From: a virus | Direction: 5' to 3' (one strand) | Virus genome (UHGV): UHGV-0123934 | DNA: 38,805 nt | Part shown: positions 15,895 to 35,940 of the stretch, in pieces | How the letters are laid out: each line of letters begins with the position of its first letter | Numbering within the stretch: the first letter of the stretch is position 1 | Program-made: the position numbers and the translations under genes | The notes under the pieces: generated by a model | Database searches by the model: none | Seen by the model: only the letters and a program-made list of their open reading frames with translations | Told to the model about the DNA's origin: nothing

Positions 15895-15897
15895 GGT

Positions 15898-16434: not shown

Positions 16435-16744
16435 CACGCGCATCGAAATCCTCGACTACACCGAGGAGCGGGATGAGTACAACGACCTCACGAAATCGCT
16501 CCGGCGCGTCGCCGTCTGCTACGCCCAGCGTACCGAGAACGGCGGTCGGGAAAACCTCTACGCCGGACGCATCGTCCACGAGAACGAAACGGTCTATACG
16601 ATCCGTTGGCAATCCGACCTGCGCCCCGATATGGTCGTTCGCGACGAGGGGTATCTGCGGAAGATAACTTCGATCCACGAGGAGGGACGCCGCTGGCGCC
16701 TGCACCTCAAATGCCGGAAGAGCGATGCTGACGATCGAGGTTGA
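16427..16744 (+). CDS. phage head closure / head-tail adaptor protein
   Basis: 105-aa protein overlapping the connector stop; size and position typical of SPP1 gp16-like head closure proteins. Confidence 0.65.
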   Translation: MFDTRIEILDYTEERDEYNDLTKSLRRVAVCYAQRTENGGRENLYAGRIVHENETVYTIRWQSDLRPDMVVRDEGYLRKITSIHEEGRRWRLHLKCRKSDADDRG

Positions 16745-17249
16745 AGGTTATGCCGAAGCCAAACGGATTCTGGACGAGCTGCCGAACACGATGCAGAAAC
16801 GGATGCTGCTTGCAGCTCTGCGCGCCTCGGCCAAACCGATGTTGCAATCGGCACGGAGCAAAGTTCCCGTCCGCACGGGCAAACTGAAGAAGCAGTTGCG
16901 CACGGTTCGCTACAAGGACCGCAACGCTTCGAAGTCGGAGGTGGCCATCGCCGTGAAGCCGGTCTTCGAACGCACGAAGAAGAAAGGCACCGTGAACGAA
17001 TACTACGGCAAGTTCATCCACGAGGGGACTGCCGATCCTCGCACTTCGAAAAAGGGCAGGCTGCTGGTCTTCGACGATGTGCAGGGTAAAAAGGTCTTCG
17101 TCCATAGCGTAAAGGGCATCCGGCCGACGCCTTATTTGGAGCAGGCTTATACGGAGAACTCCGAGCGTACGGTCGCACTTTTCGGCGACGAGTTGGCTGC
17201 TGCGGTCGAGAAGTTCGTGAATAAAAACTTCAAACCGGTATCGAAATGA
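16725..17249 (+). CDS. HK97 gp10-like phage protein
   Basis: PVRTGKLKKQL motif, size and synteny. Confidence 0.6.
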   Translation: MLTIEVEGYAEAKRILDELPNTMQKRMLLAALRASAKPMLQSARSKVPVRTGKLKKQLRTVRYKDRNASKSEVAIAVKPVFERTKKKGTVNEYYGKFIHEGTADPRTSKKGRLLVFDDVQGKKVFVHSVKGIRPTPYLEQAYTENSERTVALFGDELAAAVEKFVNKNFKPVSK

Positions 17250-17602
17250 TGGATTTCAAGAAACATCTGATCGCGCTTTTGGAGCGTGAGATTCCAGAAT
17301 TGGCGGATAAGATTCAAGCCGGTGCGGTCGATGCCCGGACGCCTGCGCCTTTCGCCGCGTTCTCCGTACCGGAAGAGACGCCCGTAAGGACGCTACACGG
17401 CATCGTCGGCTATCGGACGATGTTCGAGGTAGCGGTCTATGACAGCAGGTTCTCCGGTGCGGAACGCCTCAAGCATCGGGTGATCGCCGCCTTGGAGGGT
17501 GCGGAGTTCGACGGCAAGCGCAGCCGCTTCGTCTCCTCGGCGGCGGAATACTATGCAGACTACGACGTGCACGGTGCGACGATGACATTCAGAATTGTTT
17601 AA
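17246..17602 (+). CDS. putative tail completion/terminator protein
   Basis: 118-aa ORF overlapping upstream stop (ATGA), last gene of the head-tail joining block; no motif. Confidence 0.4.
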   Translation: MMDFKKHLIALLEREIPELADKIQAGAVDARTPAPFAAFSVPEETPVRTLHGIVGYRTMFEVAVYDSRFSGAERLKHRVIAALEGAEFDGKRSRFVSSAAEYYADYDVHGATMTFRIV

Positions 17603-18242
17603 CCCAATCCGTAAAATCGAGTTTTATGAGTTGCCAGATTTTATTTTCAAGACAAACAGGGTCGGGATCACCATCCGCTCTCGTAAAATCGGTCAATCCC
17701 GCAAGGCATTCTTCGCGCGATGCTCCGTAGGGATATCGTGCTGCGTATAAAGCGAGCAGCTGCTCGATAGAATAGGCATTATGAAGAAGATGCAAATCCC
17801 AAAAGTCCTTTTTACGGCCGCCGCGGGCGATAACATCCATCTTCATCGCAACGATGTCGTCTACGGACGCCATACGGATCGTATCGTGCTGCTCTGCCGG
17901 GCGGATGAAGTCATCCGTATAGAACAGGTCGAGTTTTACGGACTTTTCCCGGTTCTGTCCGATGATATATGAGGCCCCGAAGCCGACGATTTCTCCGCAA
18001 TCACCCTGACAATAAGGAAACTCTTTGCGCAGAATATCCTGCAATTTATGGAAATCCAAAGATCTATACTCGGCATCGGTAAATAGATCTATATCGTCGG
18101 ACATACGATGTCCATAGCGCAAACTGAGCGAGGTGCCGCCGACAAGGCGGAACGGGGCGAATGCTTCGAGAGTCATCAGATGTTCGAGTGACGACCGCAG
18201 AATGGGTTTGACAGTATGGTATTGCAACGCTTTATGCTTCAT
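17589..18242 (-). CDS. nucleotidyltransferase, AbiEii/AbiGii toxin-like (DUF1814-like)
   Basis: N-terminal FRLVGGTSLSLRYGHRMSDDIDLF (GGT...S.DIDL polymerase-beta-like NTase signature); start overlaps upstream partner. Confidence 0.75.
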   Translation of the reverse strand: MKHKALQYHTVKPILRSSLEHLMTLEAFAPFRLVGGTSLSLRYGHRMSDDIDLFTDAEYRSLDFHKLQDILRKEFPYCQGDCGEIVGFGASYIIGQNREKSVKLDLFYTDDFIRPAEQHDTIRMASVDDIVAMKMDVIARGGRKKDFWDLHLLHNAYSIEQLLALYAARYPYGASREECLAGLTDFTRADGDPDPVCLENKIWQLIKLDFTDWVKQF

Positions 18243-18753
18243 AATCGAGATATTGCTTCAGGTTCTTTTTGATAACCGATGAGAATGGAGATGACGGCGA
18301 TAATCCGATCTTGCTTAAAATGGTTTCTCGACCATAAAAACGGATGGTTTCGATGATCTCTTCTTCATTGCCTCGCTCCATTACGCGATTGATAACGTAA
18401 CTGCTATGGGCATCCCAATTGATATTGTCGAACGATGTGTCCCAAAACAGGGAAGGTCGGTATTTTTCGAGATCCGGATGGTGAGCGGACGAAAGTTTTC
18501 GCTTCTCCTGCACAATGTCGTAGTGAACCTGCAGGGTCATGAGTATGCCTTCCTCTAATGCGAGCGCATGTTCGATTCGCAACGACAGCGGAATATTCAT
18601 CGACCTGCGGCCGCGAATAATGGCGCTTATGGTTTGGGGGTGCTCACCGATAGATTTAGCGAACCGACCGCTTTTCAGGTTTCGATTATTCAGCTCGCGT
18701 TGTAAGAAGAGTCCCGGATGTACTCCTTTCAGTATGTCGATTAAATTGTTCAT
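18232..18753 (-). CDS. HigA-like HTH antitoxin/regulator with C-terminal extension
   Basis: VHPGLFLQREL ... ISAIIRGRRSMNIPLSLRIEHALALEEGILMTLQVHYDI resembles the HigA/VapI antidote HTH; 11-nt overlap with the NTase gene; ATG at 18753 (track start 18762 is TTG). Confidence 0.6.
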   Translation of the reverse strand: MNNLIDILKGVHPGLFLQRELNNRNLKSGRFAKSIGEHPQTISAIIRGRRSMNIPLSLRIEHALALEEGILMTLQVHYDIVQEKRKLSSAHHPDLEKYRPSLFWDTSFDNINWDAHSSYVINRVMERGNEEEIIETIRFYGRETILSKIGLSPSSPFSSVIKKNLKQYLDYEA

Positions 18754-18817
18754 ACAACGCAAAAGTAAACATATTTGTTTATTTTAACAAATTTTATGCC
18801 GAAATATTTTTACGCTT

Positions 18818-19258
18818 ATGCCTGAAACTTACGGAAACAAACAGGTCGTCCAAGGCGAGGACATCATCCTCTTGGTGGACGATAAGACGACGCTCCACGC
18901 CACGACGCACACGCTGAAGGTGGATTTGGAGATGAAAGAACTGCGCACGAAAGATACTGACGGCAAAGAGAAGTGGCCGGGCGATGTTTCGTGGTCGGTG
19001 GACGGCGACGGACTGGTGGTCATCGACGATTCGATCGAGAACAGCCATACCGCCGAGGAAGTCCTCGACTTGGTGCTTCAAAAGAAACTCGTCGAGGTGG
19101 TCGTCAAATCGCCGCTCACGGGACTCGCGAAGATGTACACGGGCAAAGCCTACATCACGACATTCTCGCTCTCGACGCCTGCGGGCGATAACGCTTCTTA
19201 CAGTTATTCGCTTACCGGCAGCGGCAACCTGACACCTGTAGACAAACCTAAATCCTGA
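18818..19258 (+). CDS. phage major tail protein (TP901-1/phi13-like)
   Basis: C-terminal YTGKAYITTFSLSTPAGDNASYSYSLTGSGNL typical of siphovirus major tail proteins. Confidence 0.8.
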   Translation: MPETYGNKQVVQGEDIILLVDDKTTLHATTHTLKVDLEMKELRTKDTDGKEKWPGDVSWSVDGDGLVVIDDSIENSHTAEEVLDLVLQKKLVEVVVKSPLTGLAKMYTGKAYITTFSLSTPAGDNASYSYSLTGSGNLTPVDKPKS

Positions 19259-19263
19259 CCGCA

Positions 19264-19623
19264 ATGAAAGAGATCATCATTCAAGGTACGCCGCGTCCGA
19301 TCCATTTCGGACTGCGCGCCATCGACGAGTTCGTCAAGCAGCGCGGTGCGGAGTTCGGGCAGACGGTCGCTTCGACCGACGCTCTCGGATCGCTGGACAG
19401 CATCGTTGCGCTGACCGCTACGGGTCTCAACGAGGGCGCACGGCGTGCCGACAGCGACCGTCGCTACACCGAAGACGAGGTGTGGGACATCTTCGACGAG
19501 GAGCCGTCGCTCATCCTCGCTGTCTCGGAACTCTTCGTTGAGAGCATCGCGCCGCTGACGGATAAGTTGGGCGACCTCTCAAAAAACGGGAAACGCCCGA
19601 CGACGGGGAGCCGCAAGCGGTAA
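19264..19623 (+). CDS. tail assembly chaperone (gpG-like)
   Basis: 119-aa acidic protein right after the major tail gene; slippery heptamer near its 3' end. Confidence 0.6.
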   Translation: MKEIIIQGTPRPIHFGLRAIDEFVKQRGAEFGQTVASTDALGSLDSIVALTATGLNEGARRADSDRRYTEDEVWDIFDEEPSLILAVSELFVESIAPLTDKLGDLSKNGKRPTTGSRKR

Positions 19624-19946
19624 CCTACGAGCGGTGGTTCGCCATCGCCGTCGGGCAGATGGGACTGGCACCCGAAGCCTTCGAACGCCTGACGCCCGCC
19701 GAGTTCATCTATGCGTGGCTCGGCTGGGCGAAACGCGAGGAAGACCGGCAGCGGCAGGCATGGGAGCGCGAACGGTGGGCGGTATGGGTTACGACTTGCA
19801 TCCAGCTTGACCGCAAAGACCGCCGACCGATGACCGAGATGTTCCCGCTGCCGTGGGAGGAACCGACGGCTCCCGCAAAGCAAGAACCGACCATGCAGGA
19901 ACGCATGGAACGAATCGAAGAAATGAAACGATGTATCCGAAAATAA
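19264..19946 (+). CDS. tail assembly chaperone G-T fusion via predicted -1 programmed ribosomal frameshift
   Basis: A_AAA_AAC heptamer at 19581-19587 in the gpG frame; the -1 frame is open from the slip site through ORF 19659..19946 (KKRETPDDGEPQAVTYERWFAIAVGQMGLAPEAFERL...). Confidence 0.55.
19581..19587 (+). other. -1 slippery heptanucleotide A_AAA_AAC
   Basis: Codons tca aaa aac in the gpG frame; manual frame tracing shows no stop in the -1 frame downstream. Confidence 0.55.
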
Positions 19947-20450: not shown

Positions 20451-21233
20451 ATGGCAAGATTGAAAACTCCGATTTCATACTATGGCGGCAAGCAGATGCT
20501 TTTGAAGCATATCCTGCCGCTGATTCCCGAACATACGCTCTACACGGAAGCCTTCTGCGGCGGCTGCGCCGTGCTGTTCGCCAAGCCGCCCGCGCAGTGC
20601 GAAGTCATCAACGACACGAACACCGAATTGGTGAACTTCTACCGCGTGGCGCAGACCCAGTATGCGGCACTCAAGGCGATGATCGACGCGACGCTCCACA
20701 GCCGCGAGATACACGCGCACGCACGGCATATCAACGAGCATCCGTCGTTCTTCACGCCCGTCGAGCGGGCTTGGGCTGTATGGGTCTGCACGAAGTTGGG
20801 CTTCGCCTCGATGATCGACGGAACGTTCGGCTACGACCGCAGCGGTACGACGACGCTGAAACTCCGCAATGCGAAAGAGGCCTTCACCGAGGAGTTGTGC
20901 GGACGCCTCGGCCGCGTTACGGTCGAGTGCGAGGACGGCATCGATGTCATCCGCCGCTACGACTGTCCCGAGGCGTTCCACTTCGTCGATCCGCCCTATG
21001 TCGGCAGCGACTGCGGACACTACAACGGTACGTTCGACGAGGAGGATTTTTCGAGGCTGCTCGACACGCTCGCAACGGTCGAAGGGAAGTTCATGCTCAC
21101 GATGTTTCCGCACGAGAAGATCGAACGCCTCGCCGCCCGGCACGGCTGGACGATCCATCGGCTCGACCGCACCATCACCGCCTCGAAAGTTTCCCGCCGC
21201 CGGCAGGAGGAGTGGATTACGACGAACTACTGA
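20451..21233 (+). CDS. dam: DNA adenine methyltransferase (Dam-like, alpha class)
   Basis: N-terminal ISYYGGKQMLLKHILPLIP...EAFCGGCAVLF and motif IV FVDPPY. Confidence 0.85.
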   Translation: MARLKTPISYYGGKQMLLKHILPLIPEHTLYTEAFCGGCAVLFAKPPAQCEVINDTNTELVNFYRVAQTQYAALKAMIDATLHSREIHAHARHINEHPSFFTPVERAWAVWVCTKLGFASMIDGTFGYDRSGTTTLKLRNAKEAFTEELCGRLGRVTVECEDGIDVIRRYDCPEAFHFVDPPYVGSDCGHYNGTFDEEDFSRLLDTLATVEGKFMLTMFPHEKIERLAARHGWTIHRLDRTITASKVSRRRQEEWITTNY

Positions 21234-21240
21234 TACCGAC

Positions 21241-22017
21241 GTGGGTACATTCGCTTACGATAACCCCGCTTACATCGCTTCGTGCTCGTTCGGCAAGGAT
21301 TCGATCGCTACGATCCTCCTTGCCCTCGAATATGGCGAGCCGCTCGATGCCGCTGTCTTTTCGGAGGTGATGTTCGACCATCGGCGCAATATCAGCGGCG
21401 AGATGCCCGAACACATCGAGTGGATCTATTCGACGGCGATTCCGCGTCTTGCCGCCTTGGGCGTACGGGTCGATGTCGTCCGTTCGGAGAAAGACTATCT
21501 TACGTTATTCCATACGGTCATAGGGAGCAGTACGCATAAGGGTATGCTGCGCGGCTGGCTCATCGGCGGCAAGTGCTGCGCCAATCGCGACCTCAAAATC
21601 CGGCCTATACATCGCTATTATGCCCGTTATCGAGAGCAAGGCATCGTGCAGTACGTCGGCATCGCGGCCGACGAACCGAGACGCCTCGCGCGGATGCAGG
21701 ACAAAGGGTATAACCGTAAAACGAGTCTGCTCGCCAAGTACGGGTACACCGAGGCGGACGCCCGACGCAAGTGCGAAGAATACGGTCTGCTGTCGCCTCT
21801 CTACCGCACCTCGCATCGGGGCGGTTGCTGGTTCTGCCCCAACTGTCGCATTCCGGTCTTCGCCGAACTGCGCCGCCGCCATCCTGAATTGTGGCGTGAA
21901 CTGCAACTGCTTTCGAAGGTCGGAAATAAGTCCTCCGAAGGTTTCAAATACGGGCTGACTTTCGAGGAGGTCGAGCGGCGGATGGATCTCTTCGAACACT
22001 CACCGACGCCATTCTAA
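21241..22017 (+). CDS. PP-loop ATPase, PAPS reductase/QueC-like family protein
   Basis: PP-loop SFGKDS near the N-terminus, C-terminal Cys cluster GGCWFCPNC; start uncertain (GTG 21241 is the first start after the dam stop). Confidence 0.65.
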   Translation: MGTFAYDNPAYIASCSFGKDSIATILLALEYGEPLDAAVFSEVMFDHRRNISGEMPEHIEWIYSTAIPRLAALGVRVDVVRSEKDYLTLFHTVIGSSTHKGMLRGWLIGGKCCANRDLKIRPIHRYYARYREQGIVQYVGIAADEPRRLARMQDKGYNRKTSLLAKYGYTEADARRKCEEYGLLSPLYRTSHRGGCWFCPNCRIPVFAELRRRHPELWRELQLLSKVGNKSSEGFKYGLTFEEVERRMDLFEHSPTPF

Positions 22018-22020
22018 ACA

Positions 22021-22105
22021 ACTGAAAATAAATACGATAATAGTCGCCGAATAACTTGCGTGTTCCGAATAACGATGTTATGTTTGTCATGCAATAAACA
22101 ACTAA
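22021..22105 (+). promoter_or_regulatory. Promoter/leader repeat copy 1 (-33 TTG 22056-22058, -7 TAtgTTTG 22079-22086)
   Basis: Conserved about 85-bp element also at 22497, 23311, 23957 and 24588; motif spacing 20 nt fits the Bacteroidota sigma promoter pattern. Confidence 0.6.
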
Positions 22106-22118
22106 AATAGAGCGAATT

Positions 22119-22422
22119 ATGAAAAAGACAGTCATCGTGAAAGGCGAGCGTCGCAAGGTAGAATTCGAGTATCGAGTAATCGATAAATTGGTTAGTTGCC
22201 AAAAAGCAAACGATGGGATAAGCAGGGGGATGGCTTCCGGTCGAAACCTATTACCACGAAGCCGTTGCCATTATCGACGGTGTAGAATATCCGAGCGTTC
22301 GACGCTGGCATACCAATGGCGGCAGGTATTCGGAACAGTTCTTTTACAACGGACATTTCTATGATTCGTATAAGAAAATGATCGAGCGCATTCTCGAATC
22401 GGCAGACGAAAGTAACTCTTGA
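22119..22422 (+). pseudogene. small gene apparently frameshifted at a G5 run (or a sequencing indel)
   Basis: Frame 0 ORF 22119..22364 loses protein-like character after the G5 run at 22225-22229; the +1 frame continues as a convincing sequence (WLPVETYYHEAVAIIDGVEYPSVRRWHTNGGRYSEQFFYNGHFYDSYKKMIERILESADESNS) to a stop at 22420-22422. Confidence 0.45.
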
Positions 22423-22444
22423 ACCTCGATGGAAGCAGATGGAA

Positions 22445-22475
22445 AAACAGGCTCCGTACGGAGCCTGTTTCGATC
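22445..22475 (+). terminator. putative intrinsic terminator
   Basis: Perfect 10-bp stem aacaggctcc/ggagcctgtt with gtac loop, followed by tttcg. Confidence 0.5.
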
Positions 22476-22496
22476 TTTCGCTGTAAGCGTAAATAA

Positions 22497-22580
22497 CTGA
22501 AAATAAATATGATAATAGTTACCGGATAACTTGTGTGTTCCGAATAACGATGTTATGTTTGCAGTACGATAAACAACTGA
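22497..22580 (+). promoter_or_regulatory. Promoter/leader repeat copy 2 (-7 TAtgTTTG 22554-22561)
   Basis: Near-identical to copy 1. Confidence 0.6.
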
Positions 22581-22606
22581 ATAATAGACGATTAAAACAC
22601 CCGAAC

Positions 22607-23029
22607 ATGACAAGTGCACAGGCAAAACAGATCGCATCGAACTATATGCGGCAGCAGAGCGATTATGTATTTTCGGCGGTAACGGTTAAAAGCCTCGCTC
22701 CGGCGAACGGACCAGTCAAGGTGTGGCTCACCACCGAAGACGACTACGGGGACGAACTGATCGTCGAGGTCGAGATGGACCCGCAGTCGAATGAGATCCG
22801 CTGGAAGAAGATCTGCAACACGGGACGCCTATCCGAATATCTGAAGCCGGCTACTCGGATCGATAAACTTTCGGCGGGGCAGCGCTTCCGGCTGCAAGGC
22901 GACTGCGTGGTTTACGAGTTCGTGGACAATGTAAAGGACCGCAGCAATATTCCCTATATCATCCGACGGGCAGACCGATCCGGTTGCGTATCGAGAGTCG
23001 GATGGCAGGAAGTTTTTCCTATCGAGTAA
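22607..23029 (+). CDS. hypothetical small protein
   Basis: ATG 22607 downstream of promoter copy 2 (ORF track start 22535 lies inside the promoter repeat). Confidence 0.5.
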   Translation: MTSAQAKQIASNYMRQQSDYVFSAVTVKSLAPANGPVKVWLTTEDDYGDELIVEVEMDPQSNEIRWKKICNTGRLSEYLKPATRIDKLSAGQRFRLQGDCVVYEFVDNVKDRSNIPYIIRRADRSGCVSRVGWQEVFPIE

Positions 23030-23081
23030 CCGATAACCGCGCACCTTGCCGAAAGGCAGGTGCGCATAAAACGATACGACG

Positions 23082-23312
23082 ATGAAACTCCGCCGAACGA
23101 AAACCGGAACTTACACGATTGCTGGTATTACCGCAACTCAATATCGCACCCTTGCGGCAGTGCTTATGACCGCCGATGAGCGTTGCTTCGACGAACAGGA
23201 CGAGGACGGCAACTATTACAGCAACGACGATTTCGTCTGCTCGCTCGATGGCGATGAACGGGTGGCTTTGCGACAGGTGTGCGACGCACTTCGGCAACGT
23301 GTAAAATATTGA
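23082..23312 (+). CDS. hypothetical small acidic protein
   Basis: 76-aa ORF; preceded by hairpin with GAAA loop (23037-23065). Confidence 0.4.
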   Translation: MKLRRTKTGTYTIAGITATQYRTLAAVLMTADERCFDEQDEDGNYYSNDDFVCSLDGDERVALRQVCDALRQRVKY

Positions 23313-23390
23313 AAATAAATGCGATAATAATTAATGGAAAACTTGCGTGTCCCGAATTATGATGCCATCTTTGCAGTGCAATAAACAACT
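23311..23390 (+). promoter_or_regulatory. Promoter/leader repeat copy 3 (degenerate -7)
   Basis: Shares aacttgcgtgt and gcagtgcaataaacaact cores with the other copies. Confidence 0.5.
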
Positions 23391-23405
23391 AATATAGAGC
23401 GCATT

Positions 23406-23738
23406 ATGAGTACAAGAGCAAGAATCGGCGTAAGACTTCCCGACGGAAAAATCAAAAGCATTCATATATGGCGGGACGGACATCCCGATACGTTGGGCGA
23501 AACATTGTCAGCGCACTACAACACATTGGAAACGGCAATGGCACTGGTCGAACGAGGCAACATAATCGATGTGGAAGCACGTCTCGAAGAGTGCCGGTTC
23601 GAGAAATCGAATGAACGGTACGATACCGAGCCTCGGATTTATGAATCGGTTGCCGCCTATGAACGAGAAATCGAGGAGGATATATGTTACAAATATCTCT
23701 ATCGGGACGGCAAGTGGGAATACCGGGCGGTCGATTAG
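23406..23738 (+). CDS. hypothetical small protein
   Basis: 110-aa ORF with ATG start downstream of promoter copy 3. Confidence 0.5.
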   Translation: MSTRARIGVRLPDGKIKSIHIWRDGHPDTLGETLSAHYNTLETAMALVERGNIIDVEARLEECRFEKSNERYDTEPRIYESVAAYEREIEEDICYKYLYRDGKWEYRAVD

Positions 23739-23772
23739 TAACCGACTTCCGATCGTAAGGAGCGAATGCTCC

Positions 23773-23802
23773 GAGCCTCCGACGGGAGGCTTTCTCTCGT
23801 TT
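23773..23802 (+). terminator. putative intrinsic terminator
   Basis: Stem agcctcc/ggaggct, loop gacg, then T-rich ttctctcgttt. Confidence 0.5.
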
Positions 23803-23821
23803 CATTCAGTTGTTTATTGCG

Positions 23822-23856
23822 ACCGGAGCCGTGCATCGTGTACGACTCCGGTTTTC
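23822..23856 (+). terminator. putative intrinsic terminator preceded by inverted leader motif cagttgtttattgc (23807-23820)
   Basis: Stem accggag/ctccggt followed by tttt; paralogous to the element at 25080-25133. Confidence 0.5.
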
Positions 23857-23956
23857 GTTCAAAGGCGGGACATTGTTTCTGCAACGGATCTTCGGCAGCA
23901 TGTATATTTACCATATGGGACATGCTTGATAAATAGTTGATATTCTTTGAATTAAG

Positions 23957-24014
23957 TTGCCGATAAACTTGCGCGTTCCGAATAATGATGTTATGTTTGC
24001 AGTGCAATAAACAA
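23957..24014 (+). promoter_or_regulatory. Promoter/leader repeat copy 4 (-7 TAtgTTTG 23992-23999)
   Basis: Core gccgataaacttgcgcgttccgaataatgatgttatgtttgcagtgcaataaacaa. Confidence 0.6.
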
Positions 24015-24044
24015 TTGAACTACAATCTATTAAACGACTCGATT

Positions 24045-24263
24045 ATGAATACTGCGAATCGAAAAAGAACGGAAATCGACGCCGAACTCGACCGGTTGGA
24101 GGTCGAATTCGAGAAGAACCGCAAGGAGATGCAACGCCTTGCCGACGAAAACAGACGTGCCGGCAACCGCTACGGCGAATTATCGAATGCGAATCACGAC
24201 ATCAACAACCGGATCCTCACATTGCTCGCTGAGCGTTGGGAATCGGAAGAGACGGCTGATTGA
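24045..24263 (+). CDS. hypothetical small coiled-coil protein
   Basis: ATG 24045 downstream of promoter copy 4. Confidence 0.45.
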   Translation: MNTANRKRTEIDAELDRLEVEFEKNRKEMQRLADENRRAGNRYGELSNANHDINNRILTLLAERWESEETAD

Positions 24264-24338
24264 CGAAACGAGAGACGACCCCGCCGAGAAATCTTCCTCG
24301 GCGGGGTTAAGACCCGAAACCGGAAAACACATAAAGAG

Positions 24339-24536
24339 ATGAAAACGATGAATGCAAATGCAACGGTAGGCGACAAGATTCGCATTATCCATCTTCGCGA
24401 CGAGGACAGCCGTTACGACGGCAAGGTGGGAACGATCGAGTTCATCGACTCGCTCGGGCAATTGCACGGTACATGGGGCGGGTTGGCAGTCATTCCCGAA
24501 GTCGATCGGTTCGTAATTATCGAGAAAGCGGAATAA
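24339..24536 (+). CDS. hypothetical small protein
   Basis: 65-aa ORF; preceded by 10-bp perfect stem hairpin 24279-24306 (no U tract). Confidence 0.4.
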   Translation: MKTMNANATVGDKIRIIHLRDEDSRYDGKVGTIEFIDSLGQLHGTWGGLAVIPEVDRFVIIEKAE

Positions 24537-24587
24537 TCGCCTGCAACGATAATGCTCGGTTCCGTCATCTTTTCTGAACGTCTAATT

Positions 24588-24672
24588 TACTGAAAATAAA
24601 TACGATAATAGCCGCCGAACAACTTGCATGTTCCGAATAACGATGTTATGTTTGCAGTACGATAAACAACTA
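24588..24672 (+). promoter_or_regulatory. Promoter/leader repeat copy 5 (-7 TAtgTTTG 24647-24654)
   Basis: Near-identical to copies 1 and 2. Confidence 0.6.
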
Positions 24673-24687
24673 AAAAAAGAGCGAATT

Positions 24688-24975
24688 ATGAGAACGAACA
24701 TCGACCGGTTTTTAGAGAGATTCCCGAAGAATGCCACGGATTGGGCGCAGGCGACGGACGAGGTGCACGATATGGCTCGCAAGGCTCGCGAATTGTTGGA
24801 AGAGTACGAAGGCGTAATCGTCGAACCGGTAAATTTCCAGGCTATCGAGACCCCGGCCGAGTGGAATACCGAAGGTCGCGAGTTCATCCTGACGAATTTC
24901 GATCGCATGGCGGATAGAACCAAAGAGCGCTTCTACGACTACTTCCGCGAGTGGTTCGAAGGCGAAGAGGAATAG
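24688..24975 (+). CDS. hypothetical small acidic protein
   Basis: ATG 24688 downstream of promoter copy 5. Confidence 0.5.
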   Translation: MRTNIDRFLERFPKNATDWAQATDEVHDMARKARELLEEYEGVIVEPVNFQAIETPAEWNTEGREFILTNFDRMADRTKERFYDYFREWFEGEEE

Positions 24976-25094
24976 ACCGACGCACGGATGCTCCTCGTTC
25001 AAGCTGCGGGGAGCATCCGTCCTAACCCCGGAGCAGGGTTGCACACGTCTCTTTCGATAGGAAATCTATCGTGCTCCATCAGTTGTTTATTGCA

Positions 25095-25133
25095 GCCGGA
25101 GCCGCATTATGTGCGGCTCCGGTATTTTATTTT
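25095..25133 (+). terminator. intrinsic terminator preceded by inverted leader motif cagttgtttattgca (25080-25094)
   Basis: Perfect 11-bp stem ccggagccgca/tgcggctccgg, 5-nt loop, then attttatttt. Confidence 0.7.
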
Positions 25134-25175
25134 GTATGTAAATAATGATTAAATTTGTAACGAAAACAGAATACG

Positions 25176-26216
25176 ATGAAAGCCTATACCTATATCGAAC
25201 ACGGGCGGTTCGAGCTGCTCGACAAGCCGGAACCCGCCTTGCAGGACCCTCGCGACGCCATCGTGCGCGTGACGCTCGCGAGCATTTGTACCAGCGACCT
25301 GCATATCAAGCACGGCAGCGTACCCCGCGCCATTGAGGGCATCACCGTCGGCCACGAGATGGTCGGCATCGTCGAGGAGGTCGGGTCGGAGGTGCGCAGC
25401 GTAAAGGTCGGCGACCGCGTGACGGTCAACGTCGAGACCTTCTGCGGCGAATGCTTCTTCTGCAAGCGCGGCTACGTGAACAACTGCACCGATCCCGACG
25501 GAGGCTGGGCACTTGGCTGCCGCATCGACGGCGGGCAGGCGGAGTATGTCCGCGTGCCGCATGCCGATCAAGGGTTGAACCGCATTCCCGATACGGTGAG
25601 CGACGAGCAGGCATTGTTCGTGGGCGATATTCTGGCTACAGGTTATTGGGCGGCGAAGATTTCGGAGATTGCGCCCGACGACACGGTCCTGATTATCGGT
25701 GCCGGACCGACGGGTATCTGCACGCTGCTTTGCGCAAGATTGAAGCGCCCGAAGCGAATCATCGTCTGCGAAAAATCGCCCGAACGGCGGCGATTCGTGC
25801 GGGAACACTATCCCGAGGTGCTGACGGTCGCACCGGAGGAGTGTCGCGAGGCGGTTTATGCGAACAGCGACCGTGGTGGCGCCGACGTCGTGCTGGAGGT
25901 GGCCGGTGCGGAGGATACGTTTCGCCTGGCGTGGGAGTGCGCCCGCTCCAATGCGACGGTTGTTATTGTTGCGCTCTACGACCGGCCGCAGATGTTGCCG
26001 CTGCCCGACATGTACGGCAAGAACCTCACCTTCAAGACGGGCGGCGTAGATGGCTGCGACTGCGCCGAGATACTCCGGCTGATCGAGGCGGGCGAGATTG
26101 ACACCACGCCGCTCATCACGCACTGTTATCCGCTCGGCCGCATCGCCGAGGCATACGACCTCTTCGAAAACCGCCGCGACGGAGCGATCAAGGTGGCTAT
26201 CGATTGTACCGAATAG
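25176..26216 (+). CDS. zinc-dependent alcohol dehydrogenase family protein (MDR superfamily)
   Basis: Catalytic-zinc signature GHEMVGIVEEVG, structural-zinc Cys cluster CGECFFCKRGYVNNC, Rossmann motif LIIGAGPTG. Confidence 0.85.
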   Translation: MKAYTYIEHGRFELLDKPEPALQDPRDAIVRVTLASICTSDLHIKHGSVPRAIEGITVGHEMVGIVEEVGSEVRSVKVGDRVTVNVETFCGECFFCKRGYVNNCTDPDGGWALGCRIDGGQAEYVRVPHADQGLNRIPDTVSDEQALFVGDILATGYWAAKISEIAPDDTVLIIGAGPTGICTLLCARLKRPKRIIVCEKSPERRRFVREHYPEVLTVAPEECREAVYANSDRGGADVVLEVAGAEDTFRLAWECARSNATVVIVALYDRPQMLPLPDMYGKNLTFKTGGVDGCDCAEILRLIEAGEIDTTPLITHCYPLGRIAEAYDLFENRRDGAIKVAIDCTE

Positions 26217-26241: not shown

Positions 26242-26943
26242 TCACGTCAGCGTCCACCCCTTGTCTGTTGCGATCGCTTTTTGGATAGCATTCAGTTTCG
26301 CGAGGTTCTTCGCTCCGATATTGCAGGTCTTGCCATTGCCGGTATCGGATAGCGCGTTCAACAGGAATACCAAACTCTCTACCATGAGTTTCGGACAGCC
26401 GTTCACGGCGATGTCTACATTGACGGGGCCGTCGATGATTACCGTTTCGAGTGCGGAGCAGGAGACGAACGTCGTGTCGATCTTCGATGTTACCTTGCTG
26501 AAGTCAAGTCTTCCGCCGATTTTACGCAGGCTCTTGCAGCCGTGGAACATCTCCGAAGCGGAAGTAATGCGCGAGGTGTCCAGTCCGCCGATCTCCTGCA
26601 AGTTCGTACAACCGTAGAAAGCATACATCATATTCGCGACGTTCGAGGTGTCGAGCGTCGGCACACGCTCCAGCGCCGTACAGCCGTAGCACATCTGATA
26701 CATCGAATCGAACGACGCTGTGTCGAGTGCCGGAAATACCGACATCGTCGTATTGCCCCGAAAGAGCTGGTAGCCGTTGCGGATCTGATTCATTCCGCTG
26801 GTGCTGTCCACCAATGCGACTTTATCGACGAGCGATACCAACGTCTCTTCGTCGGTTATCGCCACGCCTTTGTCGCGTAGCGCCCCGGCAAGGTGCTGCC
26901 GCAGCGCATCGAGCCGCAAAACGAGTGAAGTAAAGTCTGCCAT
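26242..26943 (-). CDS. BspA-type leucine-rich repeat protein (putative tail-associated adhesin/receptor-binding component)
   Basis: Tandem repeats of the F.GC..L..I...DTS....M..F.GC type (MCYGCTALERVPTLDTSNVANMMYAFYGCTNLQEIGGLDTSRITSASEMFHGCKSLRKIG). Confidence 0.65.
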   Translation of the reverse strand: MADFTSLVLRLDALRQHLAGALRDKGVAITDEETLVSLVDKVALVDSTSGMNQIRNGYQLFRGNTTMSVFPALDTASFDSMYQMCYGCTALERVPTLDTSNVANMMYAFYGCTNLQEIGGLDTSRITSASEMFHGCKSLRKIGGRLDFSKVTSKIDTTFVSCSALETVIIDGPVNVDIAVNGCPKLMVESLVFLLNALSDTGNGKTCNIGAKNLAKLNAIQKAIATDKGWTLT

Positions 26944-26946
26944 ACG

Positions 26947-27180
26947 CTATCCGATAATATGGTTCAGTGCCTCCTCGATGCCCGTCAGTCCGAGCGAAGC
27001 GGTCATCGCATCGACCAACGTCGCATAAGTTACGGCAGCACCCGTACCGTTGCGGTCGATTTCGATAAGGTCGGTGGCTGCCAAAGTCGTCACCTTCGGG
27101 AGTTGAGAGAGCGTGATCGTATCGGTATCCGATCCGGTTGCAAGCCGTCCTATAATCGCCCCTGTTTGTTCTGTTGCCAT
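26947..27180 (-). CDS. hypothetical small protein (tail fibre module)
   Basis: 77-aa ORF tightly packed between the tail fibre and LRR genes. Confidence 0.4.
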   Translation of the reverse strand: MATEQTGAIIGRLATGSDTDTITLSQLPKVTTLAATDLIEIDRNGTGAAVTYATLVDAMTASLGLTGIEEALNHIIG

Positions 27181-27184
27181 AATT

Positions 27185-29323
27185 CTATTCTTCGTAAATC
27201 TTGAATTCGGACATCATCTGATAAGTTACGTGCCACATGCATTTGGCGGAGGAATAGGGCGACGGCACAGCCAACAGTTGCAGTAGTCCTCCGTAGGTCT
27301 CGATGCGAGGAACCGGCAGATAGCCCATTCCGTAGGCATCTTTCTTCAGTGTCGTCACGATGCCCGACTGCGTGTCGTCCGCCGCAAGTACCAGACTGGG
27401 CGACGAACGGGTGCGGATCGGACAGTCGTAGAGGTTCACCACGCTGCCGATATATTCGGCCGATGTCGGCAGGTTAAGCCAAATGAGGTAAGTGCCGAAA
27501 TCCGCGCCGTTGGCGATCAGGTTGAAGTTGCGGTTCAATGTATACTTGCGGGTCGAGGCGTTGTAGTCCGTGCCTTCGTCCGTGAAGTATTTGAACTGCA
27601 CCTTCGAATATCCGCTGAAGATACCGCTCGCCATTTCGACATGTCCGTCTTCGTAGATGCGTGTGGCAGCCGTCGCAGCATTCTCGATACCGTCCGCGCC
27701 GGCGAAGAACATCAACTTGCCGTGCTTCGACGTCGGAGCGCCTTTCAATGCGCAGCCAGCCATACCCGCTACGACCTTCTTGTCCGTATCATCCTTTACG
27801 CCGACGAACCCTGACAGCACCACACCGCTTCCGGCATCGATCTCCGTCGAGATATCCTGAAAGTTCTCGCGCAGATACTCCAGATCGCTGTTGTCGCTTT
27901 TCGCCGCTTCGTCCAAGAGCGCTCCGATCGTCCGGCGGGCCGTGTAGTAAGCCTCGATGTCGGCGAAATCATCCTCGACCGGAATGAACTCCGGTTCCGG
28001 CTGCGTATATTTCCCGATGGCGGCGACGGCCCGCTGATAGGCATCTTCGTAGGGTGTCCACTCATCGGCGAGCAACCGAACGGCGCGCCGCTTGCCGTGC
28101 ACCATAAGTATTTTCCCGTTCGCGCTGCGATAACGAAACACAGAGAGCAGCCGCAGGGCATTGGCGCGGAGTTGTTCGTATTCGGTTCGGATATCCTGCA
28201 AGCGCTCTTTCAGGAACGACTTCTCCACAGGAGAGACGTACTCATCGGAGTTGATACGACCGAGCGTCTCCAACGTCGAGGAGATCGTCTGCATCAACTC
28301 GTCGAAATCCGTTCCGGCATCGGGCTTCGCGGGATCGATGCGACCGAAGCGTAAGATCCCGTTGCGGAAACTTACGCCATAACCCGTCGTACGGTTGAAG
28401 AGCTGCATATCGCCCGTCGCGGAGTCGAACCACGAGTCGCCCGACCTGTCCGAGAGGAAGCCCGAGAGGTAGATGTTTTTCAAATAGGCCGAATAACCGG
28501 TCATATCCAGACCGTGCGCCTTGAGATTCGAAAGGTCGCCGAACTGCGCTGCGATATTCTCCGTGCGGATCGTCCAGTCGTCCATACCCGTGAGAAACCG
28601 CAGGTAGGTGCGGGTTTCGTAGCGGGAGGTCCGGCGCTCCTTGTCGGTCGTATTGCCGAATGCCACGAACTGCATCGCCGCCTGCGGGTGATAGGGATAA
28701 CCCTCGCGCAATTCGTACCGCCATTCGGCGTAGGTATCGCGGTCGAGGCACTCGGTAAGCCGGAAGTAGCAGGTTGTGAAGCCGGCATAGGTGCGGTTGC
28801 CGAACGAGTCGTCCGAATCGACGGTATTGCCGCTCGATGCGTCCATTGCCGAGTTCAGAAAGATGCCGATACAGAGATCGTTCTCGCGTAGGGTGCTTGT
28901 TTCGCCCTCCTCCAACTTGACGACCAGCATCCGGTTCTCCGGCGAGACGAGCTCGACGATGCCGCCGCCCGGAGCGGACCACCGATCGCCGACGACCGTT
29001 TCGATGCGGTTGTAGCGATATTCGGGGACCTCCAGGAACTCCTCCAAATGAAGCCGCCGCAGGTACGTATCGCCCATAACCGATAAGTCGCCCGAGATCG
29101 TACCGCCTTTCTTGTCCAACTTCTTGTCGAGTTCGCCCGACAGTCCCGTGATGTCGGAGACGGCGTGCGTATGCTTCTTCGGAGCCATTACGCTTTTGAT
29201 CTCCTTACCGGAAACCTTCATCGATGCGGCGGCTGTCGGGACGTCGACGATGAACTCGAATGCGTCGAACTCCGCCAATTGTCCCGAAGCGCTCGCGAGG
29301 TCTTTGATGCGAACTTCGTCCAT
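27185..29323 (-). CDS. phage tail fibre / receptor-binding protein
   Basis: ATG at 29323 (ORF track extends to 29503); N-terminal KKHTHAVSDITGLSGELDKKLDKKGGTISGDLSV-type fibre segment. Confidence 0.55.
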   Translation of the reverse strand: MDEVRIKDLASASGQLAEFDAFEFIVDVPTAAASMKVSGKEIKSVMAPKKHTHAVSDITGLSGELDKKLDKKGGTISGDLSVMGDTYLRRLHLEEFLEVPEYRYNRIETVVGDRWSAPGGGIVELVSPENRMLVVKLEEGETSTLRENDLCIGIFLNSAMDASSGNTVDSDDSFGNRTYAGFTTCYFRLTECLDRDTYAEWRYELREGYPYHPQAAMQFVAFGNTTDKERRTSRYETRTYLRFLTGMDDWTIRTENIAAQFGDLSNLKAHGLDMTGYSAYLKNIYLSGFLSDRSGDSWFDSATGDMQLFNRTTGYGVSFRNGILRFGRIDPAKPDAGTDFDELMQTISSTLETLGRINSDEYVSPVEKSFLKERLQDIRTEYEQLRANALRLLSVFRYRSANGKILMVHGKRRAVRLLADEWTPYEDAYQRAVAAIGKYTQPEPEFIPVEDDFADIEAYYTARRTIGALLDEAAKSDNSDLEYLRENFQDISTEIDAGSGVVLSGFVGVKDDTDKKVVAGMAGCALKGAPTSKHGKLMFFAGADGIENAATAATRIYEDGHVEMASGIFSGYSKVQFKYFTDEGTDYNASTRKYTLNRNFNLIANGADFGTYLIWLNLPTSAEYIGSVVNLYDCPIRTRSSPSLVLAADDTQSGIVTTLKKDAYGMGYLPVPRIETYGGLLQLLAVPSPYSSAKCMWHVTYQMMSEFKIYEE

Positions 29324-29671
29324 AACGACGTGAAAATAACGCTTCGCCGAACCTTTTTCGGGATACAAAGTCCCTAATTCCGAAGAATGCCTTATCTTTG
29401 TAATTGCATTCCGCTCTGTCGGGATGCGACATATTATTCGACTTAACCTCGGAAAAAACTGGTAATTTTTTAGCAAATGGTTAAGCACTCCGTATCCTCG
29501 CATCGAACGGCTCCTGCCGTAAGGTTCGGGATATGGTCATATCCCTGCTTTACGGCGTGGGCTATACGTGCTTATCATTTGCAGGTATACCAGTACCTTT
29601 CCGAGATAGGCGGCAGTAGGCCCACGTTCTTTTTTGTCCGGCGGACAGACGCGATCCTATCTGCCATTTCG

Positions 29672-30181
29672 ATGATTATGAAAGCAACGAATCGAATACC
29701 GGATCGCCGTGTCGTGCGACCGTTGACCGCACGGATATTGCGGTCGTTTCTGGTGGCGTCGGAACGCTCGCATCACCATATTTATGCGCTGTGGGAACAC
29801 GCATCGATCCTGTCATTTGCGATAAAGAATGCAGACGGCGAATATTTGTCTTTGCGAGAGTTTTTCAGCAAGGGCGATGCGGTTGCGCCCGACGATCCGC
29901 TCATCGTCATCTTCCACGAAATGCATATCGAAACCGTGGAAGAATTGACCGCTGAATATATCGAACGCATTTATGAATCGTTTCTCTACCATCATTGCGA
30001 GATGGAATTGCGCCGCAACGCCCCGCTCCGTTTGACTCCGGAATCGATACGACGATACGGCTTGACCGAGGCGGATGCTGTCCTTGTCGGCGAGCATCTC
30101 GAAGTCCTGAACGAGATGATCCGTCGGAAACTCCAGCGGCAATACGACGAACTCAAAGCCTTGGATTGCATTCGGAAGTAG
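29672..30181 (+). CDS. hypothetical protein
   Basis: ATG 29672 inside ORF 29477..30181; GC-rich, divergent from the tail fibre gene, upstream of the SIR2-NTPase gene. Confidence 0.4.
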   Translation: MIMKATNRIPDRRVVRPLTARILRSFLVASERSHHHIYALWEHASILSFAIKNADGEYLSLREFFSKGDAVAPDDPLIVIFHEMHIETVEELTAEYIERIYESFLYHHCEMELRRNAPLRLTPESIRRYGLTEADAVLVGEHLEVLNEMIRRKLQRQYDELKALDCIRK

Positions 30182-30255
30182 TATTTTAAGTACTATCATA
30201 AGTTTTATGGAGTAGATTCTCATTCTTTTTTGCTGGAAATTGCGAAATAAAGAAG

Positions 30256-30279
30256 ATTTTGCTATTTTTATAGCAAAAT
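30256..30279 (+). promoter_or_regulatory. perfect 10-bp inverted repeat attttgctat-tttt-atagcaaaat, operator-like, 8 nt upstream of the SIR2-NTPase start
   Basis: Read directly from the sequence. Confidence 0.5.
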
Positions 30280-30287
30280 AATATAAT

Positions 30288-32780
30288 ATGGACGCTAAGA
30301 TTGAAAAACTTAAATTCAGCCTGCGACACAATAATCCTAATTTATTTGTTGGTGCAGGGTTTTCGTTAGGTGCTACTCTGCAAAATAATGCACCGATTCC
30401 AAGTGGAGCGACATTAAAAGATGGCATTATTACAAATATCCTTAAATACCCGAAATCCAGCCCGGAATATAATGAACTTTCCATATTACCATTGTGTAAA
30501 GTTTGTACTATTACAGTCGCAGAAAAAGGTCGTGAAGAACTTTATTCTTATTTACAGTCCATATATCAAAATGTGCAACCAGCCGAATTCCATAAATCAT
30601 ATATTAAATATCCTTGGCATAACATATATTCGACCAATATCGATGATGTAATTGAAAATGCTTGTGCAATTGAGAATGTGCCTATTATTATATATAATGA
30701 GCCACATAACCCTAAACCAAAACAAGATAAAAGTCTTGTATTATATAAATTGCATGGCTGTGTTAATAACATGGACGCAGGCGTTATTTTTGATGAGGAA
30801 GAATATATCGATTCTATTTTAGATAGAACTGACCATAGATTTGGTAATTTATCTATTGAATTTCAAACAAAAGATTTTGTTTTCGTTGGATCTGATTTTG
30901 ATGATTTTAACATTAATTATTATTTAAGTTTATACTCAGCAAATGGTACAGATTCAGGCCGAGGAAATTTGTTTTTTATTAATCCAAAGCCATCATATGC
31001 TTTTAAGAGTAGGATAAAGCAGGTTGGAGGAATTTTGATAGAATTCAATGCGAAGCAATTTGCAGAATTGATTGATTCCATAAGATTTGATTTAGAGACA
31101 ATAAACGAAACCAAACTGTCGTATGATGGTTATGTGCGTGTCAAACAATTAAAAGACAATTTGTCGTCAAATCATTACGATTCGGATTTATATCTTGGAG
31201 CGCGTCCGAAATGGACAGATATTTTTTACGATTGGGATATTATTTTATCGCCCGCAATTAAGACATTCATTTCTACATTGGATGATTTTGAAATCGATGA
31301 TAAGAATACTTTGGTTTATGCTATACACGGGCGAGGATATTCCGGGAAGTCTGTACTAATAAAAAGACTTGCTAACATTCTCATTGATGCAAATTATGAA
31401 ATCATTTCATTTGAAGGAAAAAATTTCAACTCCAATAGATTCTTACATTATATAAATAAATCACAATATCACAAGTTTGCATTAATTGTTGATGATGCCA
31501 GTTATTTATATAGCCAGTTTGAATATTTGTGCAAGAAAGTATCTGGAAAAATTAAACTGTGTATTATATCGGCTTCAAGAATATTTCTTCATAACAAGCG
31601 AAAATATAGTCTTGTAAATATAAATAGCGTAGAATACGAGATGACAATAACTATAGATGAAGCTATTGCATCTGATATTATTAACAAATTAAACCAAAGA
31701 GGCTATTTAGGACGTATTCTTCGTTCCTGCCCAGATAAAGATTCTCAAATTCAATTCGCAAAAAATAATACGGATATAGCATCTGCTATTTTTGCTATTA
31801 CATATGGGAAAGATTTCCAACGCCGTTTTGCTGCAGATGTCAATAATATTATCAAAGATGGCAATTATAGAGATCCGCTAATCAAATTGGCAATTTTTCA
31901 GAAAATGCAATTAGCATATTGCCCTCGAGAGTTATTCGTTAGATTATATGGAAAGCGAATTATAGGGATATTGCAACGTATGGAGAATATTTTAAGAGAT
32001 GCGCATTCTCCACGCCTTGAGCTAAAAAATGATTTTATTGGAGATATTATCCTTAAAAATTCAACATCTGTAGAAATAATAAATAGTTTGAAAGAGCTAT
32101 TGGTATATATTTCATCAATGGTTGAAAACACCTCCAATTCTTACTGGAATGAGATTCAGTCTATATTAATGAGAGATAAGTTAGTTCGTGATGTCTTAAA
32201 TATAAAACCTTCTGATTTTAAGCAAATGCTATATGAAATAAGAGAATATTATTATGACAATTACAACTATTGGCTTCAATTAGGAATTGCGGAGCAATTG
32301 GCAGGAGATTATGATAAGGCGTTAATTCATTTTAGCCAAGCACAAATATACGGCCCCAAATCCTATATGGTAAAAAACGCAATTGGTCGCAATTATATAT
32401 TTCAGGCAATTAAAGAATTGGATAATGATATTGCTATAAAATTATTTAATGAAGGGAAATGTATTTTATTTGAATTAATTAAAAATAGAGAAGAATATCA
32501 AGCGAAAGCATATTCAACGCATACATATATTGCTGGATTGATAAGGTTTTATAAACGAAAGCACAATTTGAAAATTTCCTCAAAAGAAGCTAAAGAAGCA
32601 CAGTCTCTTATCAATACAATACGCATAAAATATAAAGGAGATCCAATATTTGAAAATTTAAACTCGACTTTCACTAAATTTATTTTACAACATTCTTCGA
32701 ATATGACATTAAATTTACAAGAGTTACAAATGTCATATAGAAATTGTGTAGATGAAGTGGAATTCATAGATATGGATTAG
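30288..32780 (+). CDS. SIR2-like domain protein fused to P-loop NTPase and helical repeat domain (SIR2-STAND / Avs5-like candidate antiphage protein)
   Basis: SIR2-family motifs LFVGAGFSLGA, IYSTNIDDVIE, LYKLHGCV, FVFVGSDFDDF; Walker A IHGRGYSGKS and Walker B FALIVDDA; C-terminal about 450 aa helical/TPR-like; strongly AT-rich. Confidence 0.75.
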   Translation: MDAKIEKLKFSLRHNNPNLFVGAGFSLGATLQNNAPIPSGATLKDGIITNILKYPKSSPEYNELSILPLCKVCTITVAEKGREELYSYLQSIYQNVQPAEFHKSYIKYPWHNIYSTNIDDVIENACAIENVPIIIYNEPHNPKPKQDKSLVLYKLHGCVNNMDAGVIFDEEEYIDSILDRTDHRFGNLSIEFQTKDFVFVGSDFDDFNINYYLSLYSANGTDSGRGNLFFINPKPSYAFKSRIKQVGGILIEFNAKQFAELIDSIRFDLETINETKLSYDGYVRVKQLKDNLSSNHYDSDLYLGARPKWTDIFYDWDIILSPAIKTFISTLDDFEIDDKNTLVYAIHGRGYSGKSVLIKRLANILIDANYEIISFEGKNFNSNRFLHYINKSQYHKFALIVDDASYLYSQFEYLCKKVSGKIKLCIISASRIFLHNKRKYSLVNINSVEYEMTITIDEAIASDIINKLNQRGYLGRILRSCPDKDSQIQFAKNNTDIASAIFAITYGKDFQRRFAADVNNIIKDGNYRDPLIKLAIFQKMQLAYCPRELFVRLYGKRIIGILQRMENILRDAHSPRLELKNDFIGDIILKNSTSVEIINSLKELLVYISSMVENTSNSYWNEIQSILMRDKLVRDVLNIKPSDFKQMLYEIREYYYDNYNYWLQLGIAEQLAGDYDKALIHFSQAQIYGPKSYMVKNAIGRNYIFQAIKELDNDIAIKLFNEGKCILFELIKNREEYQAKAYSTHTYIAGLIRFYKRKHNLKISSKEAKEAQSLINTIRIKYKGDPIFENLNSTFTKFILQHSSNMTLNLQELQMSYRNCVDEVEFIDMD

Positions 32781-35137: not shown

Positions 35138-35143
35138 AGCGGT

Positions 35144-35551: not shown

Positions 35552-35555
35552 TGCT

Positions 35556-35930: not shown

Positions 35931-35940
35931 AGTATTGCAC

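Follow-up and report, generated by a model that had tools for sequence, protein, structure and literature searches.

A zinc-type alcohol dehydrogenase gene as probable moron-type cargo of a temperate Alistipes prophage

The virus genome UHGV-0123934, a stretch of 38,805 nucleotides (hereafter the window), is most of an Alistipes prophage, and the sources of near-identical copies of the gene considered here are named 'uncultured Alistipes sp.'. On the plus strand of the window, positions 25176–26216 hold a gene for a zinc-dependent alcohol dehydrogenase (ADH) of the medium-chain dehydrogenase/reductase (MDR) superfamily, lying between a small-gene array and the tail genes. This ADH is likely a moron-type cargo oxidoreductase that benefits the lysogen, most plausibly through carbonyl detoxification or redox balancing. 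It has an intact active site, lies well inside the prophage, is present in some relatives and absent from others, has diverged together with the phage genes under purifying selection, and has its closest chromosomal relatives in the family Rikenellaceae.

The open reading frame starts with ATG and encodes a complete protein of 346 residues. The two domains that define the superfamily, a GroES-like catalytic domain and a Rossmann NAD(P)-binding domain, both score above the curated Pfam thresholds (PF08240 ADH_N, 92.2 bits with a cutoff of 23.5; PF00107 ADH_zinc_N, 39.9 bits with a cutoff of 31.8), which confirms the original prediction of a full-length zinc-containing MDR enzyme. A full-length match to PHROG 2640, 'zinc containing alcohol dehydrogenase superfamily', was also obtained (E = 6e-72), and the best matches of the protein among solved structures are PDB 5YLN (E = 8e-69) and then 4CPD (E = 5e-52). 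The catalytic zinc ligands, C38, H60, E61 and D151, are complete, and the alignment to 5YLN agrees with their assignment. Each of the motifs quoted in that prediction was found in the protein, namely the zinc-site motif G59-H60-E61-MVGIVEEVG, the structural zinc cluster C90/C93/C96/C104 and the Rossmann GxGxxG signature G175-A-G-P-T-G180. The second Rossmann β strand ends in an acidic residue, E199, with an Asp at the aligned position of 5YLN, and by the general rule for Rossmann folds the cofactor is predicted to be NAD(H). Across 100 homologues, the zinc ligands, the GxGxxG signature and E199 are conserved at 98% or more. Between prophage copies, the ratio of nonsynonymous to synonymous substitution rates (dN/dS) is 0.07–0.14, as read from the compared sequences a sign of purifying selection.

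The element that carries the ADH is, judging from its genes, a temperate siphovirus-like prophage. Its head, packaging and tail gene set is complete, comprising the small and large terminase subunits (TerS and TerL), portal, protease, capsid, connector, tail completion, tube, tape measure and distal tail genes, and it has an integrase and att-like repeats with host genes outside them. An exact direct repeat of 61 bp, which includes a terminator-like hairpin, lies 5,751 bp to the left of window position 1 and 2,764 bp to the right of position 38805 (copies at L013 606–666 and L007 7177–7237), so that the element between the two copies spans about 47.4 kb. Past the right end of the window come ORF6N and a 437-residue Bacteroidetes-type tyrosine integrase and then host rsmD, pif1 and mutS; outside the left repeat copy is an aminotransferase gene, the left flank having been read from contigs found via the Xer-like integrase protein of the window. 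The ADH lies about 31 kb from the left repeat and about 15 kb from the right one, with phage genes on both sides, and it is therefore excluded that it is simply a host gene at a prophage edge, the condition that had been named as refuting the original prediction. The ADH does lie where claimed, with the small-gene array on one side and, on the other, the tail genes, which are on the opposite strand and converge on it. Its stop codon is 25 bp from that of a DUF285 gene, and about 200 bp containing a terminator of the phage cassette separate it from the small genes. All contigs that were read for the exact protein, and five IMG/VR contigs (L103–L107) that are themselves predictions, show the ADH in this same phage context. 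No DNA match for the structural genes was found among GenBank phages.

Comparison of related prophages indicates that the ADH is optional cargo. It is present in the five IMG/VR contigs, in contigs L015–L018 and in L118, and absent from seven mid-distance relatives (L131–L137) that retain the convergent architecture. Where it is absent, the junction may hold a C5 methyltransferase with EcoRII and Mrr (L133) or a DUF1848 gene (L132). The copies in L015–L018, where the gene sits between a Fic gene with a helix-turn-helix (HTH) domain and a DUF3825 gene, and in L118 belong to a diverged sister lineage with an 81–82% identical ADH at the same junction. Among close relatives, three have an integrase following the DUF285 gene; in others the ADH has next to it, on one side or the other, an inserted gene for a CoiA-like/Zn-ribbon protein, for an ExoX-C-like protein or for a 256-residue protein. 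Given that the ADH is variably present and that other genes occupy the same site, the junction gathers and exchanges cargo. Within the lineage of the window, nucleotide identity is 90.7–94.5% for the ADH and 84–97% for the flanking phage genes; the divergence of the ADH thus tracks that of the phage, which speaks for long residence. The GC content of the ADH region is about 60%, within the 54–61% of the backbone, with 32–41% in the defence islands. A base composition unlike that of the backbone, which is expected of a moron, is accordingly not seen, and the composition fits capture from an Alistipes host followed by long residence.

The origin of the gene can be traced to the chromosomes of the host family. 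Its closest chromosomal relatives are Rikenellaceae ADHs with 84–85% identity; in Alistipes contigs L019–L022, an 84% identical ADH is located between xseA/xseB with a methyltransferase gene and secA. The phylogeny against host paralogues that had been proposed as a check was run and places the phage ADH together with the chromosomal ones of Rikenellaceae/Alistipes, which identifies it as host-derived cargo. In a neighbour-joining tree, the phage ADHs of the window's lineage form a clade with 100% bootstrap support among chromosomal Rikenellaceae ADHs, and those of the sister lineage (L015 and L118, likewise 100%) have a separate place among Alistipes sequences; in none of 200 bootstrap replicates did all the phage ADHs group together. 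Nested in the phage clade is a 93% identical ADH from a mouse-gut Alistipes metagenome-assembled genome (L023), which nonetheless adjoins a major facilitator superfamily (MFS) transporter and a C92 peptidase. The split of the phage clades, together with this copy in a non-phage context, points to repeated transfer between phage and chromosome; with 46–52% support, the deeper nodes of the tree are too weak to fix how many transfers took place or which way they went.

The regulatory surroundings of the ADH suggest that it would be transcribed apart from the genes before it. A strong terminator upstream of the ADH had been claimed, and the plus-strand structure at 25095–25123 proved to be one: a 13-bp stem with nine GC pairs, followed by a T run, folds at −26.9 kcal/mol (z = −5.7), a stability that no shuffled sequence out of 200 attains. 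This intrinsic terminator closes the last small-gene cassette. Since its 5′ lead-in is common to a second terminator at 23806–23853, it is part of the small-gene cassette and not of the ADH, which it would insulate from upstream transcription. Downstream of it, a putative promoter box, TAAATTTG, lies at 25150–25157 on the plus strand, 18 nt before the ATG. The −7 promoter consensus of Bacteroidetes is TAnnTTTG, of which a pattern scan finds this box to be a perfect match; the motif is enriched in the window, with 26 sites where 14.2 are expected and no shuffle reaching 26. The same or a near-identical box precedes the ADH by about 20 nt in the chromosomal contigs L019 and L023 and in the phage contigs L103 and L105, and these two phage copies retain it though the rest of their leader differs. 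Thus, the ADH appears to travel with its own promoter, and TAAATTTG probably functions as such, which would allow autonomous expression in the lysogen. The possibility that this promoter is a member of the 104-nt cassette family of the small-gene array was considered and rejected, as none of the five repeat copies lies upstream of the ADH as its leader.

The original prediction had also drawn attention to a 14-nt stretch (2755–2768) shared between the leaders of the ADH and of the gene at 2769. The identity is real and in fact covers 15 nt, the A-rich sequence at 25163–25177 on the plus strand, probably the whole short 5′ untranslated region of the ADH, being an exact match to 2754–2768; it carries no weight, however, as it is not above chance expectation. 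About 12 other isolated exact 14-mers are common to unrelated sites in the window, L103 and L105 (close relatives, same prophage) have another leader before a 95–96% identical ADH, and the pattern scan found no −7 box near gene 2769. A-rich leaders without a Shine-Dalgarno sequence are the norm in Bacteroidetes. On these four grounds the match is best explained by chance, and a shared regulatory element was rejected.

Taken in sequence, the proposed course of events begins with an ancestor in the prophage lineage that would have captured a cassette, consisting of the −7 box, a short A-rich leader and the ADH reading frame, from the Rikenellaceae chromosomal gene pool. The cassette would have been inserted at the point on which the early/small-gene arm and the tail arm converge, a junction that holds other optional cargo in relatives. 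In the lysogen, the upstream terminator would stop phage read-through, and the ADH would be transcribed from its own promoter. The product is predicted to be an NAD(H)-dependent zinc MDR enzyme that converts an alcohol to an aldehyde or ketone and back. Its likely role would be the detoxification of reactive carbonyls or redox balance, bringing a gain to the lysogen and hence to the prophage. Detoxification is suggested by the pumps, nitroreductase, ArsC-like and short-chain dehydrogenase/reductase (SDR) neighbours that homologues have elsewhere and by the mobility of the gene.

Several observations weigh against this reading. The hints from detoxification neighbourhoods are loose, since synteny across genomes is almost nil. 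No NCBIfam equivalog cutoff is reached by the ADH, including those of Tdh, IolM, AdhP, sorbitol dehydrogenase and others, and the top scores, 149 bits for IolM (cutoff 450) and 146 bits for Tdh (cutoff 458), lie far below; assignment to a specific MDR subfamily therefore failed, and with it the naming of a substrate. No terminator was found downstream of the ADH, between it and the DUF285 gene, so the locus is not a textbook promoter-gene-terminator moron, and the ADH transcript would run antisense into the tail-fibre genes. Between the −7 box and a −33 TTTG there are about 15 nt, less than the roughly 19–21 nt that are usual in the published consensus. Finally, in L015–L018 the ADH starts 11 nt past the Fic-HTH gene and has no −7 box, and there it is probably co-transcribed with that gene.

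It had been suggested that the gene could be an auxiliary metabolic gene. Host-derived metabolic cargo in a phage is supported; a gene that boosts lytic growth, the strict sense of the term, is the weaker fit, the anatomy agreeing better with a moron, or lysogenic conversion. Under the strict sense, read-through or the gene's own promoter would give expression of the ADH in the lytic phase, where it would retune the NADH/NAD+ ratio or fermentation flux and raise phage yield, rather than serve the lysogen. We give this a small but appreciable chance, given that the ADH stands at the 3′ end of a plus-strand unit with early-like small genes, a Dam gene and a gene resembling phosphoadenosine phosphosulfate (PAPS) reductase, and that the zinc ADH family is already among the phage protein families (PHROG 2640). 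The strong terminator separates the ADH from these upstream genes, however, its promoter box is the same as that of chromosomal copies, and the phage, with its integrase and att repeats, is temperate. Moreover, no bona fide GenBank phage with this ADH was found, and nearly all 'phage' records with homologues are unverified contigs from virus-like particles or mislabelled bacterial contigs.

The wider distribution of the family bears on another possibility. A scan with one genome per species returned at least 570 relatives of the ADH, the best 80 of which have 76–97% identity. These 80 come from Alistipes, other Rikenellaceae, Bacteroides, Phocaeicola, Parabacteroides and Odoribacteraceae, as well as from cultured Firmicutes such as Roseburia yibonii, Blautia sp., Anthropogastromicrobium aceti and Brotocaccenecus. 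The prophage studied here accounts for only one of the 80 best loci, and the others share almost no neighbours; conserved synteny around the homologues of these 80 species, sought as a clue to a pathway, was essentially absent. Genes found next to the ADH elsewhere include those for a TrmH-like methyltransferase, an SDR, an ArsC-like protein, multidrug and toxic compound extrusion (MATE) and MFS pumps, a nitroreductase, TraX, type I restriction-modification and a relaxase/ImpB element. Between Bacteroidales and Firmicutes, the family is 76–82% identical in unrelated contexts. Firmicutes loci with 76–80% identity are L056, L059, L062, L063, L066, L067, L072, L076, L078, L085–L087, L089, L092, L093, L095–L097, L100 and L102, and among them the ADH adjoins MATE pumps (L063), a nitroreductase (L102) and TraX (L066). 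Identity of 76–80% in so distant a group is a sign that a single gene was transferred horizontally between phyla. One sequence filed as viral, IMGVR_UViG_3300029594_000232 (L109), has a 79% identical ADH together with a MobA/VirD2 relaxase and ImpB and is probably a mobilizable or conjugative element, not a virus.

With a relaxase-bearing element, chromosomes and phages all among its contexts, the family could be pictured as a promoter-bearing single-gene cassette of unusual mobility among gut bacteria, with temperate Alistipes phages as one recurrent vehicle and a resistance-like detoxification as its function. This idea is a doubtful one, held at long odds. If it were true and a specific gut electrophile, alcohol or drug were detoxified, the ADH would be a phage-borne, cross-phylum 'resistance-like' metabolic trait.

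That the ADH is part of an unrecognized anti-phage or counter-defence function is very unlikely. The proposal draws on association with a hotspot, as the same junction in relatives has EcoRII with Mrr, Fic, DUF1848 or CoiA-like nuclease genes and the prophage is packed with defence islands. Assignment to a defence system was nevertheless rejected, because PADLOC returned no full-length match and its sole hit is a 54-residue stretch of the Rossmann region to mad2 (E = 6e-6); the close homologues are single genes in housekeeping (xseB-secA) or unrelated neighbourhoods, and the ADH has the active site of an ordinary oxidoreductase.

Scarcely credible is the idea that two adjacent or nested elements, one with the head arm and the other with the tail arm, enclose a strip of chromosome to which the ADH belongs as a host gene: the unusual separation of the tail tube from the tape measure and distal tail genes, which are encoded on the other strand some 13 kb away, the second, Xer-like integrase at 3644–4579 and the integrase that follows DUF285 in three close relatives would suit it, but a complete virion is encoded by neither arm alone, the ADH is only 25 bp from the DUF285 gene and about 200 bp from the small genes, a single pair of 61-bp repeats brackets the whole element, the divergence of the ADH follows that of the phage genes, and the convergent architecture recurs, with or without the ADH, in relatives at 58–72% protein identity and is therefore not an artefact of two adjacent elements.

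The remainder of the window is organized as two converging arms, a layout kept in relatives L132–L136. At the left end are a gene for an RteC-like regulator (1–633) and one for a 363-residue protein (784–1875) for which no exact database record was found. The plus-strand order then runs through an HNH gene, the Xer-like integrase, TerS, TerL, portal, prohead protease, major capsid protein, connector, a gp10-like protein, tail completion, tail tube, two chaperone-like proteins, a Dam methylase, the PAPS-reductase-like protein and the small-gene array to the ADH. The Xer-like gene (3644–4579, plus strand), recognized by Pfam, encodes a tyrosine recombinase of 311 residues, a second integrase, between the HNH and TerS genes; together with the RteC-like regulator, it could be a phage gene or a remnant of another mobile element. 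The head and proximal tail module, also assigned by Pfam, occupies 5846–19946 on the plus strand, from TerS to the chaperones, and is interrupted by defence islands. It is followed, at 20451–22017 on the same strand, by the Dam-type (D12) methylase and a 258-residue protein with weak resemblance to PAPS reductase and SspD (PADLOC SspD, E = 3e-10), a pair that could be a DNA-modification module of the phage.

The small-gene array (22006–24975, plus strand) contains five copies of a 104-nt direct repeat (family D1) at 22006–22109, 22481–22584, 23293–23396, 23919–24022 and 24574–24677, with 62–100% identity. Every copy has a TATGTTTG −7 box and a small gene just downstream, and the repeat looks like a promoter/leader cassette that would drive the array. 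Matching terminator modules of the small genes lie at 23806–23853 and 25079–25123. On the minus strand, the end of the tail arm (26242–29503) encodes a DUF285/BspA-like protein (26242–26943), a 77-residue protein and a 772-residue tail protein, assigned from Pfam, PHROG and DNA similarity, the last to an annotated 'tail' gene of Porphyromonas phages. The rest of the arm (32777–38805, minus strand) encodes 954-residue structural, lysin-like and 786-residue tape-measure-like proteins, assigned from PHROG and DNA similarity. The 786-residue protein matches PHROG 27166, tape measure (E = 2.5e-54), and weak DNA similarity to tape-measure genes of Gordonia phages is seen in this arm. The tape-measure-like gene itself (32777–35137) is on the strand opposite to the tail tube and chaperone genes (18818–19946).

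Further accessory genes are scattered over the element. At least five accessory or defence islands, mostly of low GC content, lie between structural genes (8435–10250, 12237–14582, 17589–18762, 29672–32780 and 4847–5734), and their contents include an RmrA-like HTH-M78 protein with a partner, two MjaI-family endonucleases with an N4/N6 methylase, an AbiEii/AbiEi pair, a SIR2-STAND NTPase with a ThsA-like SIR2 domain and a Fic protein (PADLOC PDC-S04). In the relative L014, two of these sites hold a reverse transcriptase with an HTH protein and an AbiE pair, so the islands are swap hotspots. The left 5.7 kb of the element, outside the window, carries genes for an ArsR-type HTH protein, a DsbD-like protein, thioredoxin, two ArsP permeases and a hexapeptide acetyltransferase, which are further cargo or possibly a second nested element.

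The nearest known counterparts of the ADH locus are phage morons and lysogenic-conversion genes, for example bor and lom of lambda and HK97-type morons. Like them, the ADH is an extra, non-virion gene between functional modules of a temperate phage, with a promoter-like element of its own, a terminator that would insulate it, patchy presence and host origin. It differs from them in that its terminator is upstream with none downstream, in that its GC content matches the backbone, in its age in the lineage and its co-divergence under purifying selection, and in that it encodes a metabolic oxidoreductase where they encode surface or immunity proteins. Prophage and satellite cargo hotspots, such as the defence hotspots of P2 and P4, offer a second comparison: there too, unrelated accessory genes replace one another at a fixed backbone position, whereas here one occupant is a metabolic enzyme that has been stably kept in two prophage sub-lineages. 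As for the protein, the Cys-His-(Glu)-Asp catalytic zinc site, the four-Cys structural zinc lobe and the Rossmann domain are shared with bacterial tetrameric-type zinc ADHs that use Asp as third catalytic ligand, namely 5YLN, 4CPD and the secondary-alcohol dehydrogenases TbADH and CbADH (1YKF, 1KEV). Its sequence is only moderately similar to that of any solved or characterized enzyme, and at the place of Gly-Ser-Arg in the NADP-dependent TbADH group it carries Glu199, hence the prediction of NAD(H).

A temperate phage with a host-derived accessory gene at a variable site is a standard pattern, and zinc ADHs are a recognized phage family; the present case alone leaves the understanding of phage cargo unchanged. 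Standard pipelines would annotate the ADH as an auxiliary metabolic gene from its full-length match to PHROG 2640. Most database records of that kind are unverified or contaminated by host sequence, and many such calls in viromes rest on contaminated contigs, whereas here the viral context is borne out by structural genes to either side, by att repeats and by relatives of which some have the ADH and others lack it. A literature search on prophage or auxiliary-metabolic-gene ADHs in Alistipes or gut phages, and on PDB 5YLN, returned nothing relevant. What is added is a verified viral context, long retention under selection and an ADH family strikingly mobile across gut phyla, and thus a well-documented case of a temperate gut phage that stably carries a host-type oxidoreductase. 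Identification of its substrate, for example an aldehyde from the diet or from microbes, some alcohol or a drug, would show in what way prophages change the chemistry of an abundant gut genus.

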